64,000 nucleotides of DNA from an uncultured Rhizobium sp. (GCA_964447395.1 CAYUSO010000006.1:10154-74153), one strand, 5' to 3'; positions 11,393 through 61,425 are shown, numbered from the stretch's first letter. Translations and numbers: made by a program. Notes: a model not told the origin generated them from the letters alone.

Positions 11393-12769
11393 TTATTTAT
11401 TCAGCGGCGATTTGCGACAGCTGTATCCGAAATAAACTGCCAATCCGAGAAGAGACCACAACATGAACCATTTTCCGGTTTCAAGCAGCAGAGTGTAAAC
11501 CAAATAACCGCAGCTCAAAACGGCTAACGGCACCGTCACATAGACCAACGGGCATTTGAAAGAGCGATGCATATTTGGTTCGGTAATGCGCAAAACTAAA
11601 ACCCCGATCGCAACGATGATGAAGGCAAAAAGCGTTCCGAGGCTGGTCATTTGGCTGAGAATTTGTAGCGGTAATAATCCAGAAATTGTTGCGACTAAAA
11701 GCGAAGTCAAAGCAACGCTGACATGGGGCGTGCCAAATTTCTTGTGAAGTTTGCTGAGTGGCGCAGGAATTAATCCGTCGCGCGACATCACGAAAAAAAT
11801 TCGCGATTGGCCGTAAATTAAAATTAATAAAACCGAAGTGATACCAGCGATGGCACCAGTTGCGACAAGGGCTGATCCGATGTTCGAACCATTTTCACGA
11901 AGCGCCCGAGCAAGAGGTTCAGGATTATTCAGCGTGTCGAAATGTACGATTCCGGTTAAAACCAAAGAGACTGCAACATAAAGCGCGGTGCAGATTAGCA
12001 GCGAACCGATGATACCAATCGGCAAATCGCGTTTAGGATTTTTACATTCTTCAGCAGCGCAAGCGACGGCGTCAAATCCGATATAGGCATAAAAAACAAT
12101 TGCTGCTCCGATGAAGACCCCGTGAATTCCGAAAGGAAAAAATTCTGCATAATTTTCTACTTTAATCATCGGCGTGGCGACGGCGAGGAAGAGAAAAATT
12201 ACGCCAAGTTTTGTAGCAACGAGAATGCGGTTGAAGGTGATGCTTTCTTTGGTGCCGCGGAAAAGTAAGAAGCCGATGAAAAGCGCGATTGACATTGCGG
12301 GCAAGTTAATGATGCCGCCATCAGTTGGCACTTTTGTCAAAGATTCTGGAATGATGATTCCGCCAGTTTTTAAAATACCAACCATGTAGCCCGACCAGCC
12401 CGCAGAAACGGTGGAAGCGCCGATCATATATTCCAAAACTAATCCCCAGCCGACTAGCCAAGCAATGAACTCGCCCATAACAGCGTAGGAGTAAGTGTAG
12501 GCGCTACCTGCGACTGGAACCATTGAGGCTAATTCGGCGTAAGCTAAAGCAGCAAAAACGCAGCATAATGCGGCAATGACGTAAGAAATAGAAATTCCCG
12601 GGCCAGCATATTTTGCGGCGGCGATTCCAGTGATGACGAAGATTCCCGTACCAATGGTGCAACCGATTCCGATCATGATGAGATCCCAAGCGCCAAGCGT
12701 TTTCTTGAGCGTGTTTTTTTCAGCGGTAGCGAGAATTTCTTGAATATTTTTTTTGCGAAAGAGGTTCAT
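11393..12769 (-). CDS. APC-superfamily amino acid permease (paralog 1)
   Basis: 458 aa, polytopic. GIGCTIGTGIFV near the N-terminus and AEECKNPKRDLPIGI. Collinear with the adjacent paralog. Confidence 0.9.
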   Translation of the reverse strand: MNLFRKKNIQEILATAEKNTLKKTLGAWDLIMIGIGCTIGTGIFVITGIAAAKYAGPGISISYVIAALCCVFAALAYAELASMVPVAGSAYTYSYAVMGEFIAWLVGWGLVLEYMIGASTVSAGWSGYMVGILKTGGIIIPESLTKVPTDGGIINLPAMSIALFIGFLLFRGTKESITFNRILVATKLGVIFLFLAVATPMIKVENYAEFFPFGIHGVFIGAAIVFYAYIGFDAVACAAEECKNPKRDLPIGIIGSLLICTALYVAVSLVLTGIVHFDTLNNPEPLARALRENGSNIGSALVATGAIAGITSVLLILIYGQSRIFFVMSRDGLIPAPLSKLHKKFGTPHVSVALTSLLVATISGLLPLQILSQMTSLGTLFAFIIVAIGVLVLRITEPNMHRSFKCPLVYVTVPLAVLSCGYLVYTLLLETGKWFMLWSLLGLAVYFGYSCRKSPLNK

Positions 12770-59303: not shown

Positions 59304-59996
59304 CTAGGTAAATAAACGGAAAAATGGTAAATTCTTTATGATTTTTTTTGGGGATTTTGGCGAGCCTTTTTCATCTAAAAAAAATTCGTTAAAAACTTTT
59401 TTTACATGCGCTTTGCGTTGAGCGAATTTCATCACTTTTTCAATTTCTGAATCAATAAAATTTTTGGTTTTCTCGAAATCATTTTTCAAAAAAACTCGCG
59501 TTGTGCGAAAAATAATTTTTCCGAGAGTTAGTCTTTTTGTGTAAAAATTAAAATCGGTTGATTGGTCGTTAATTTCTTTCCAAATAAAATCGGCGATTTT
59601 GTAAGAGGCTTTCATGCCTTGAATTGCAGGCCTCAGGCCAGTTTCAAAAGATATAAGATTTTTTGGATTAAGGTAAAAATTGATCAATCTCTGCAAAGCA
59701 ATTTTGTTGTTTTTCTCAACTTCAAATCTGGCATAAAGCGCGAGACGGATTTTATCGCGAATCTTTTTTTCGCTTAAATCCTCCAAAATTTCTGTCGATT
59801 TTTTGTTTTGCGATTCGATGTAAAATTCAGCCAAATCAAGCAGGCCATTTTCGAAAATTAAACTGGAAGAATTTTCGCTAATTCCACAATTAGAAAGAGC
59901 CTTTAGAAGCGCTTCTTTGCTCCATCCGTCAAAGGTACAGATTTGGAGAAATTCGGCTAAAATTTTTTGCTTAGTTTCGGGAGAGTCGAGGAGCAT
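59304..59996 (-). CDS. COQ9-like / RpsU-divergently-transcribed family protein
   Basis: 230 aa. An N-terminal TetR-like helical segment (KQKILAEFLQICTFDGWSKEALLKA) and an overall helical layout as in alphaproteobacterial COQ9 homologs. Assigned from recollection of the family. Confidence 0.6.
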   Translation of the reverse strand: MLLDSPETKQKILAEFLQICTFDGWSKEALLKALSNCGISENSSSLIFENGLLDLAEFYIESQNKKSTEILEDLSEKKIRDKIRLALYARFEVEKNNKIALQRLINFYLNPKNLISFETGLRPAIQGMKASYKIADFIWKEINDQSTDFNFYTKRLTLGKIIFRTTRVFLKNDFEKTKNFIDSEIEKVMKFAQRKAHVKKVFNEFFLDEKGSPKSPKKIIKNLPFFRLFT

Positions 59997-60004
59997 GAAA
60001 AAAT

Positions 60005-60161
60005 AATTACGATTTAGGATTTAGGATTTACGATTTTTTATGGCGGTTATCACTGCAGATGGAGACAGATCCAGAAACAAGTTCGGGATCTGTCTTTAAA
60101 TCACGAGATTAACAACAATCAGCTTACTAAACCCCAAATCATAAATCGTAAATCGTAAATT
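60005..60161. repeat. Heptamer-tract palindrome E1 (CGATTTA/TAAATCG repeats), filling the COQ9-like|argD divergent spacer
   Basis: Left arm aattacgatttaggatttaggatttacgatttt at 60005-60037. Right arm aaatcataaatcgtaaatcgtaaatt at 60136-60161. The ~100-nt interior contains D2. Confidence 0.88.
60063..60095. repeat. Family D hairpin element, copy D2 (nested inside E1)
   Basis: agacagatccagaaacaagttcgggatctgtct. This forms a 14-bp stem with one mismatch and a 5-nt loop. Confidence 0.88.
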
Positions 60162-60162
60162 C

Positions 60163-61338
60163 ATGACCACCTCAACAAAGCTTCTTCCGGTTCACAAACG
60201 TTTCGACATCACCTTCTCTCATGGCGAAGGAGTTTATCTCTATTCTGATGGCAAGAAATATCTCGATTTTGGTGCTGGTATCGCAGTGAACGCTTTAGGA
60301 CATTGTCACCCGAAAATGGTAGAAGCCATCACCACGCAAGCAAAAAAATTGTGGCATGTTTCTAACATTTACAACGTCAACGAGCTCAATGTTTATGCGG
60401 ATAAATTGGTTGCTGCAACTTTTGCCGATTACGTATTTTTCTGTAATTCCGGCGCCGAAAGTTTGGAATGCGCAATCAAAATGATTCGTCGCCATTTTTA
60501 CTGCAAAAGTCAGCCGCAAAAAAATCGCATCATCACTTTCACTGGCGCATTTCACGGCAGAACTCTCGGCACAATTTCCGCCGCAGCAAAAAAGAAATAT
60601 CTCGAAGGTTTTGAGCCCGCAGTTCCTGGTTTTGACAATGTTGAATTTGGCAATATCGAAGCGGTAAAAAATGCAATCACCGAAAACACTGCCGGCATTC
60701 TGATTGAACCAATTCAAGGTGAGGAAGGAATTCGCGTTTCTGACAAAAAATTCATTCAAGAATTACGCAAAATCTGCGACGAAAAAAATCTGCTATTAGC
60801 TTTTGATGAGGTACAATGCGGCATGGGGCGCACTGGCTATCTTTTTGCTTACGAATTTTACGGCGTAAAACCAGACATCATTGCCACCGCCAAAGCCATC
60901 GCTGGCGGCTTTCCTCTTGGCGCATGCCTTGCCACAAAAGATGCGGCGAGCGGCATGACTCTAGGAGTTCACGGCACAACTTACGGCGGAAATCCGCTAG
61001 CAATGGCCGTCGCAAATTCAGTTTTGGATGTAATTTTGGAAAAAGATTTTCTGCCTCGCGCCAGAAAAATCGCCGAGGAATTGAAAAGCGAATTGCAAAA
61101 TCTACAAAAAAAATTCCCCGATAAAATTGAAGAAATTCGCGGCGTTGGATTGATGCTTGGCGTGAAATTTAATCAAAAAATCGACAATAATGAAATGGTG
61201 AAGAAATTCATCGAGAATGGCTTGCTGACTATTCCGGCTGGCGAAAATGTAATCCGAATTTTACCACCGCTAGTGATTACTTCAGAACATGTGAAAGAGG
61301 CGATTGAGAAGATGGAGATGGCTCTGAGCGCTGCTTAA
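60163..61338 (+). CDS. argD: acetylornithine aminotransferase (class III PLP aminotransferase)
   Basis: 391 aa. ALGHCHP, DEVQCGMGRTG, and KAIAGGFPLGA with the PLP lysine. Confidence 0.9.
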   Translation: MTTSTKLLPVHKRFDITFSHGEGVYLYSDGKKYLDFGAGIAVNALGHCHPKMVEAITTQAKKLWHVSNIYNVNELNVYADKLVAATFADYVFFCNSGAESLECAIKMIRRHFYCKSQPQKNRIITFTGAFHGRTLGTISAAAKKKYLEGFEPAVPGFDNVEFGNIEAVKNAITENTAGILIEPIQGEEGIRVSDKKFIQELRKICDEKNLLLAFDEVQCGMGRTGYLFAYEFYGVKPDIIATAKAIAGGFPLGACLATKDAASGMTLGVHGTTYGGNPLAMAVANSVLDVILEKDFLPRARKIAEELKSELQNLQKKFPDKIEEIRGVGLMLGVKFNQKIDNNEMVKKFIENGLLTIPAGENVIRILPPLVITSEHVKEAIEKMEMALSAA

Positions 61339-61395
61339 AAGGTCTGAAAATTTTAGCAAAACAGCGTTAAATCTGGGGCGCTCTTGGGGCGCAAA

Positions 61396-61425
61396 TAGAT
61401 CCCGAAACAAGTTCGGGATCTGTCT
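61396..61425. repeat. Family D hairpin element, copy D3
   Basis: tagatcccgaaacaagttcgggatctgtct, lying between the convergent argD and the PopZ-like gene. Confidence 0.85.

Follow-up and report, generated by a model that had tools for sequence, protein, structure and literature searches.

Introduction

Heptamer arrays in front of start codons and inverted pairs of heptamer arrays are both already known from bacteria. The TAACTGA direct repeats of marine Beggiatoaceae, also present in Cyanobacteria and Bacteroidetes, consist of two to six tandem units in forward orientation that end about 1 nt before start codons, with a few copies inside ORFs, and a role as leader or binding site has been proposed for them (MacGregor 2015, PMC4679880). 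Each Xanthomonas genome has 70-75 pairs of closely spaced, inverted arrays of the heptamer GGGAATC, and the type of pair is usually preserved from species to species (Rehm et al. 2015, PMC4692102). For the ctxAB promoter of Vibrio cholerae, a preprint abstract describes TTTTGAT heptad repeats as a protein-binding site with known regulators (bioRxiv 10.1101/2021.05.14.444153). Polymerase template switching homogenizes the arms of inverted repeats and quasi-palindromes and can copy several bases at once (PMC8604942, PMC7202029); homogenization of quasi-palindrome arms is credited to Ripley (1982), as cited in PMC8604942.

Here we analyze E1, a quasi-palindrome of two heptamer arrays, and its relatives within a 64,000-nt stretch of DNA (the window, G000:C6:10154-74153), in the source genome and across the genus. 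Like the TAACTGA repeats, E1 has tandem, UAA-containing 7-nt units in forward orientation near start codons. Whereas the TAACTGA unit is fixed and related heptamers are rare, several units (TAAATCG, ATTCTTA, CGACTTA and variants) coexist here, and whereas one inverted pair is recorded among 170 TAACTGA sets (PMC4679880), 27 of 28 neighboring period-7 arrays in the present genome are inverted pairs. These 27 pairs, within 300 nt, recall the dispersed, closely inverted arrays of Xanthomonas, but the GGGAATC arrays are G-rich and quadruplex-forming while the units here are AT-rich and lack GGG runs; moreover, flanking start codons on both sides are not reported for the Xanthomonas arrays, nor is any turnover of their unit (PMC4692102). 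The V. cholerae heptads share with the arrays studied here an AT-rich composition and a position upstream of a gene, and they differ by one base per unit from GATTTTA arrays of the relatives; they form, however, a single direct array at one promoter with known regulators. Template switching, finally, has been described for short unique inverted repeats, whereas the arms here are tandem arrays, in which shifted registers are possible.

Architecture of the E1 locus

The source genome (G000), from an uncultured freshwater alphaproteobacterium, is a 1.54-Mb draft of 29 contigs with about 41% G+C, and its relatives are MAGs of uncultured bacteria from freshwater and groundwater that carry the label Rickettsiales or Alphaproteobacteria. 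E1 fills the 166-nt spacer between two divergent housekeeping genes, which, like all genes here, were delimited by simple ORF calls:

59304-59996, minus strand: COQ9-family gene, divergent left neighbor of E1
60007-60036, unstranded: E1 left (5') arm, (TTA)CGATTTA GGATTTA GGATTTA CGATTT(T); its minus-strand reading lies directly upstream of the COQ9-family ATG
60037-60128, unstranded: E1 spacer between the arms, about 92 nt, almost wholly occupied by what we read as an inserted D-type element
60129-60158, unstranded: E1 right (3') arm, TAAACCC CAAATCA TAAATCG TAAATCG TAAAT
60163-61338, plus strand: class-III aminotransferase (argD-like) gene, divergent right neighbor of E1

In the best ungapped pairing the two arms of 30 nt each are 83% complementary and 92 nt apart. 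Both were identified as period-7 arrays by Tandem Repeats Finder and comprise 4-5 units, compared with about 4-6 units in arms genome-wide; they are imperfect complements, the dominant units differing at one position. The right array runs on to 60162 with a last unit TAAATTC, abutting the argD-like ATG at 60163. The distances from the arms to the two start codons are thus 0 and 13 nt, and no Shine-Dalgarno (SD) sequence is visible between the arrays and either start codon.

The whole spacer is predicted to fold with -30.1 kcal/mol as DNA (z -7.4 versus shuffles) and with -49.5 kcal/mol as RNA (z -8.5 versus shuffles), and no shuffle folded as well as the real sequence in either form. A scan of the E1 spacer for sigma-70 promoter and terminator consensus sequences found nothing, which leaves a promoter reading of the arms unsupported, and an Rfam scan of the whole window returned no match at the gathering score.

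Heptamer families in the window and the genome

The window holds further heptamer arrays, of the types here called B and C:

17612-17717, unstranded: B1, TAAGTCG/CGACTTA array pair within a long ORF, of a family apart from E and C
23258-23290, plus strand: B2, solo TAAGTCG/TAAGCTG array
43079-43176, unstranded: C1, TAAGAAT/ATTCTTA array palindrome filling the lpxB / asd divergent spacer, of the same class as E1

Across the whole genome we counted 54 period-7 arrays, while the other periods from 4 to 12 yielded 0-6 arrays each at the same threshold, and pattern controls read backwards gave no match. Three unit families cover most of the period-7 arrays: B, with TAAGTCG in the 5' arm and CGACTTA in the 3' arm; C, with TAAGAAT and ATTCTTA; and E, with CGATTTA and TAAATCG. 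That the three types are unrelated AT-rich low-complexity sequence, palindromic by chance, was named beforehand as an outcome that would undo the whole case, and the units are indeed AT-rich; the excess of period 7 over all other periods, the empty reversed controls and the failure of any shuffle to fold as well refute this reading and leave it a practically negligible probability.

The original prediction gave the units of B1 and C1 correctly, and their arms are 84% and 88-91% complementary, respectively, the latter in several registers. It also ascribed a matching opposite arm to B2, which turns out to be a solo array with no partner, and derived a general form TAA[G/A][T/A][C/A][G/T] for all copies. 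This formula aligns the 3'-arm unit of E with the 5'-arm units of B and C. Because a palindrome reads identically on both strands, the polarity of its arms is intrinsic, and the alignment is therefore not valid; we rejected the formula as a statement of homology, TAAATCG being E1's 3' arm and TAAG... the 5' arm of B and C. The spacer between the arms is, as predicted, longer in E1 (about 92 nt) than in C1 (about 27 nt) and B1 (about 40 nt).

Read with the correct polarity, the 5' arms of E and C share the unit GAWTTAN, which is NTAAWTC in the mRNA sense ahead of the ATG. The loops of C and E pairs differ in every case and range from 6 to 54 nt, whereas the 13 paired copies of family B have a common asymmetric loop, AACCGAGTTCGGAG, and a fixed element size of about 84 nt. 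Grouping B with E and C was rejected on these grounds: judged by units and loops, B is a separate dispersed element with a conserved loop, and E and C are one class that stays in place. Another 13 copies of family B are solo arrays within long ORFs and show no preferred orientation.

Arrays of the E/C class are closely tied to start codons. Ten of 17 C pairs adjoin start codons on both sides within 12 nt, and the solo C and E arrays upstream of genes have the near-arm sense in 10 of 10 cases, with ATTCTTA or TAAATCG right before the start. In at least four cases a C palindrome is flanked by genes in tandem, and its far arm then has no divergent gene to serve.

The complementary arms could also have been inherited from master copies, if B, C and E were three unrelated non-autonomous mobile palindromes of MITE or REP type and the apparent covariation merely the difference between families. 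Family B, with its conserved loop in 13 copies and its fixed size, has the features of such an element; only a few genomes of the genus are rich in B, in C or in D, and no compensation specific to single copies is seen (below). For C and E, however, the loops all differ, so that these copies, unlike those of a MITE, have no common internal sequence; pairs recur at orthologous spacers of many species, with units that are linked by single-base steps and by mixed intermediates. Neither a target-site duplication in the flanks of family B nor a Y1/RAYT transposase gene in the genome was seen. We hold this explanation to be improbable for the three types as a whole.

Among 24 other sampled genomes of the genus, the B unit is abundant, apart from the source genome, only in G011; C-type arrays are abundant only in the source genome and G053. 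The genomes rich in B arrays (G000, G011), in C arrays (G000, G053) and in D modules (G000, G012, G015, G053) thus make up different subsets of the genus, which are not sister groups. Each of these repeat families appears to have expanded independently in the genus or to have been transferred.

Unit turnover at orthologous spacers

The COQ9 / argD spacer was compared across 28 genomes of the genus. An array pair fills it in nearly all of them, with a median length of 84 nt, and the unit differs between lineages:

Source genome: GATTTAC / GATTTAG
G005 (L008): GGATTTA and GGAATTA, two of each per arm, in an order that is not mirrored
G011 (L009): AGATTTT
L013, L015, L017: AGGAATT
G053 (L021): AAGAATT
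G048 (L022): AACAATT

Single-base steps link the units in a chain, GATTTAC, GATTTAG, GAATTAG, GAATTAA and CAATTAA, and a step has usually been taken on both arms. This chain makes E and C one class of the same polarity that evolves in place. The lpxB / asd spacer, which holds C1 in the window, likewise alternates between E-like and C-like pairs among the relatives, and over both orthologous loci the types of the left and right arm are E/E in 16 cases, C/C in 4, mixed/mixed in 1 and E/C in 1.

For 17 lineage representatives, the complementarity of each left arm to its own right arm summed to 287, compared with 208.5 ± 13.5 for shuffled partners, and none of 20,000 partner shuffles attained this value, in a test that ignores the relatedness of the species. 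Of 12 phylogenetically separate species pairs, 7 had a positive contrast, 3 a negative one and 2 a contrast of zero, for which the sign test is weak (P = 0.17). The contrast was large in deep species pairs (+12, +13, +15) and about zero or slightly negative in close ones.

The closest argD relative in named records (85% amino acid identity) has GGATTTA / TAAATCC arms, a loop of about 22 nt and no D. Given the arms of this relative, the mixture of CG and GG units in E1 looks like turnover in progress. Among the relatives examined only concordance of the unit type was seen and no template-switch event was caught directly; the nearest relatives, at 81% identity over COQ9 and argD, are too distant for a single conversion event to be resolved. 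In five related species (L010, L011, L012, L016, L035) the right array has been lost and the left one kept, so that pairing of the arms is dispensable.

Other inserts occur at these loci. The heptamer palindrome in the 273-nt COQ9 / argD spacer of L034 (G051) hosts in its loop a palindromic insert of another, unrelated kind (AAACACCGAACTTCTGAC ... GTCAGAAGTTCGGTGTTT), and further palindromic insert families (e.g. GTCATCCTGAGCCTGTCGAAGGATGA...) lie beside the heptamer arrays or replace them in the lpxB / asd spacers L039, L059, L064, L048 and L052.

Coupling of unit type without base-pair compensation

A first catalog of array pairs had been seeded on exact family units and was therefore biased towards concordant arms; it was redone without an assumed unit, as all neighboring period-7 arrays at most 300 nt apart (n = 28). 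The consensus units of the two arrays were exact complements in 18 pairs, one base off in 8 and two bases off in 1. A difference of 0-1 was thus found in 26 of 28 pairs, compared with 19% of random arrays drawn from different loci (12% exact, 7.5% one off). All three E pairs, E1 included, were one base off in this unit-free catalog.

No locus in the genome catalog has an E-type arm opposite a C-type arm, whereas about 8 mixed loci among 26 would be expected if the arms were independent, in a rough estimate that takes E as about one-fifth of the arrays. The absence of mixed loci and the excess of complementary units together mean that the unit type is coupled between the arms of a locus. The same absence bears on the idea that each arm is selected independently for one genome-wide motif, such as the site of a single regulator, with the palindrome as a by-product of divergent gene order. 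The constant near-arm sense of the solo arrays, the position of most pairs between divergent start codons, and a conserved unit core around one or two freely varying positions would all suit that idea, but E and C loci coexist in this genome without mixing, and palindromes exist in tandem-gene spacers too. We consider it very improbable.

Compensation was examined within families by combining left and right arms taken from different elements and comparing these swapped pairs with the true ones. In family B (19 elements) arm identity was 0.890 for true and 0.887 for swapped pairs, and 19 matched double changes (15.6 expected) stood against 58 one-sided changes. Of the latter, 13 were G-T wobbles, which by rough reasoning is about the level of unselected changes and no enrichment. 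Family C (15 elements) gave 0.867 for true and 0.854 for swapped pairs (P about 0.09), and the three elements of family E gave no compensation signal. Arm mismatches fall mainly on the variable unit positions (1, 2 and 7 in TAAGTCG, 2 and 3 in TAAGAAT, 1 in CGATTTA), while the cores AGTC, GAATT and GATTTA are constant. Base-pair compensation within a family is absent, and private variants of one arm are not matched in the other. In an E copy between divergent genes (contig C2:8962-9048) each arm is uniform and yet the two are discordant, with four CGATTTA units facing three TAAATCT units; here homogenization within an arm appears to outrun homogenization between arms.

The claim that each opposite arm carries the matching complement therefore stands for the type of unit but not base by base, E1 being 83% complementary and every E pair one base off. 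The wider proposal, that covariation points to selection or templating, fares likewise: coupling of the unit type is seen both in the genome and among the orthologs, and compensation of base pairs is not (58 one-sided and 19 matched changes in B). A genome-wide covariation survey had been suggested, with arm mismatches as frequent as under independent drift as the result that would count against the proposal; at the level of units 26 of 28 pairs agree, but at the level of individual copies the arms of family B agree hardly better than arms swapped between copies (0.890 versus 0.887), and C2:8962-9048 is discordant throughout. As far as covariation copy by copy is concerned, the proposal is thereby refuted.

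These data also weigh on the possibility that selection acts on the folded structure itself, either a 5' stem-loop of the RNA or a cruciform of the DNA in a bidirectional control region, and that compensatory evolution keeps its arms complementary. The strong predicted fold of the E1 spacer would agree with it, as would the unit type common to both arms within loci and across species, the palindromes upstream of single genes in tandem contexts, and the conservation of the pair type at two orthologous spacers across the genus. The mismatches, however, are spaced at 7-bp intervals, on variable unit positions, with no compensation, which argues against strict selection on pairing; G-T wobbles are not in excess by our rough reasoning, one E copy has uniformly discordant arms, a clade of five species keeps the left array alone, L008 has two unit variants in both arms in an order that is not mirrored, and loop inserts of 80-200 nt are tolerated. 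On balance we regard this explanation as rather unlikely.

A D element in the loop of E1

The loop of E1 and the region downstream contain the following D features:

60042-60062, plus strand: left shell of the putative inserted element, GGCGGTTATCACTGCAGATGG; matches the GGCGATTATCC... terminal module common to families D and A genome-wide
60063-60095, plus strand: D hairpin, AGACAG + module ATCCAGAAACAAGTTCGGGAT (60069-60089) + CTGTCT; full sequence AGACAGATCCAGAAACAAGTTCGGGATCTGTCT
60096-60127, plus strand: right part of the E1 spacer, possibly a degenerate right shell with weak similarity to ...GAAGGGATAATCnGCC of other copies; boundary uncertain
61393-61425, plus strand: second D hairpin, between the convergent ends of the argD-like gene and a DUF2497 (PopZ-like) gene

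The complete D hairpin reported at 60063-60095 was recovered, with a 14-bp stem containing one mismatch, and the center of hairpin and module lies 3-4 nt from the center of the E1 spacer. Its second copy at 61393-61425 has an expectation of 0 such matches in shuffles. That copy has the position typical of a terminator; the copy in E1 lies between divergent genes, where none is needed, and a role as a needed terminator was rejected there.

The family is built as a shell, GGCGATTATC..AGACAG, followed by the module ATCCCGAAACAAGTTCGGGAT and CTGTCT. The 21-nt module occurs at 48 loci of the genome, either as single hairpins closed by AGACAG/CTGTCT or as inverted doublets, many of them 50-110 nt apart. 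A shell of about 25 nt (GGCGATTATCC..ACAAA) stands ahead of many copies and also flanks the 130 loci of family A. Treating the flanks of D as a clean inverted repeat was rejected, since the shell is present on both sides in some copies only, and for the same reason the right boundary of the E1 insert is uncertain. One shell palindrome, GGCAATTATCCCACAGTTCACAAAAGACAG / ACTGTCTTTGTTTGCGAAGGGATAATTAGC, on the minus strand of contig C14 (about 11580-11646), is empty, the 21-nt D module being absent from it; this suggests that D hairpins may themselves be modules nested at the center of a shell palindrome.

None of the other 27 orthologous COQ9 / argD spacers contains a D core, a pair of half-sites or a shell. 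The spacer of the source genome measures 166 nt against the median of 84 nt, and the difference fits an element of about 82-90 nt. The proposed insertion of D into the loop of E1 is thus supported, and we infer that a D-type element of about 82-90 nt, a unit larger than the 33-nt hairpin, entered the loop in this lineage only. E-type copies without D, for which a search had been advised, do exist, at contig positions C1:168260, C3:125178, C2:8962 and C2:128499 and in all 27 other orthologous spacers. Going by these orthologs, the E1 array pair is old at this spacer and D a late addition. The D module is patchy in the genus, being found in 17 of 44 genomes, with many copies in G000, G012, G015 and G053.

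Nine heptamer palindromes have a spacer of at least 45 nt, and four of them host an A or D element (E1 and those at contig positions C1:45052, C5:87340 and C7:17129), where a rough estimate from 147 intergenic A/D loci, about 670 nt of loops and about 138 kb of non-ORF sequence predicts about 0.7. We infer that the loops of heptamer palindromes are favored or tolerated landing sites. Short matches to D half-sites (ATCCTGTCT, AGATAGATCC, GGAATCTGTCT) lie in the loop of the E1 ortholog of L009 (G011), at position 39 of L025 and in the loop at contig C4:12922-13045; they may be remnants of D, or chance matches. The one in G011, ATCCTGTCT, was set aside as a half-D remnant, the similarity being too short.

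A compensated stem variant, CCCGAA/TTCGGG versus CCTGAA/TTCAGG, exists in family D. The two stem versions, ATCCCGAA..TTCGGGAT and ATCCTGAA..TTCAGGAT, are related by a compensated C-G to T-A change and are seen in G012, G042, G017, G008 and others, the genomes being dominated by one or the other, and in the source genome at contig positions C8:17437 and C18:5697.

The small dispersed repeats (SDR) of Nostoc are reportedly nested in heptameric tandem repeats and are said to show compensatory changes in their stems. D is likewise a very small hairpin-forming element nested in other repeats, heptamer arrays included; phylum, sequences and sizes differ, however, and here a shell with a 21-nt module sits in the loop between inverted arrays. 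In being a short hairpin repeat with 48 loci, frequent inverted doublets and a compensated stem variant, D also resembles REP/REPIN sequences (PMC3116915), but in contrast to REP/REPIN-RAYT systems (PMC3116915) no Y1/RAYT gene was found in this genome: PF01797 had no match in the source genome (96% complete), whereas control genomes did match. D is therefore not a classical REPIN.

Discussion

The explanation that we favor, and to which we give about an even chance, is that E1 and its class are not a mobile element but leader arrays close to start codons, one for each divergent gene, kept alike by slippage and by template switching between the arms. At E1 itself, each arm lies 0-13 nt from a start codon, and such a pair occupies the same spacer in most species of the genus. 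By analogy with the TAACTGA repeats, their probable role is that of A/U-rich leaders that contain UAA and lack an SD sequence, or else of putative protein-binding sites.

Since the arms share their unit type, both in this genome and across orthologous spacers, some local coupling between them exists, and templating of one arm from the other is its most economical cause. Under this proposal, replication slippage within an arm would spread new unit variants and homogenize the arm, while rarer template switching between the arms of the quasi-palindrome would copy variants across, one arm templating the other. With arms that are tandem repeats, switching would be possible in registers shifted by 7 nt; heptamer arms can in fact pair in several such registers, so that a copied variant may end up in a unit other than the mirrored one, which fits L008 and E1. 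In the long term the unit type would then move on both arms jointly, and in the short term single positions would stay mismatched. Because G000 and G053 alone are rich in C-type arrays, a lineage-level effect exists as well, and the concordance of the arms could partly stem from spread or conversion between loci.

A more speculative extension, which we think unlikely, holds that the arms extrude in vivo as hairpins or cruciforms, that register-slipped templating on these structures drives the joint turnover, and that their loops are preferred sites for A and D elements, with nested palindromes built outwards. The order of nesting would then be module inside shell inside heptamer palindrome, in a setting of bidirectional control regions.

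To our knowledge, the literature has no description of a unit that turns over stepwise and jointly on the two arms of orthologous spacers, and we found none of hairpin-module elements hosted in the loops of heptamer palindromes. Tandem arrays of heptamers at start codons recur in several bacterial phyla and are still unexplained. The present genus allows the same two spacers to be followed through dozens of species while the unit changes on both arms, which makes it testable whether the sequence of the unit matters, or the pairing of the arms, or whether the two arms are simply copied from one another. With D and A insertions nested in them, these palindromes also offer a natural experiment on what their spacer tolerates, and a hint that palindrome loops attract small hairpin elements.
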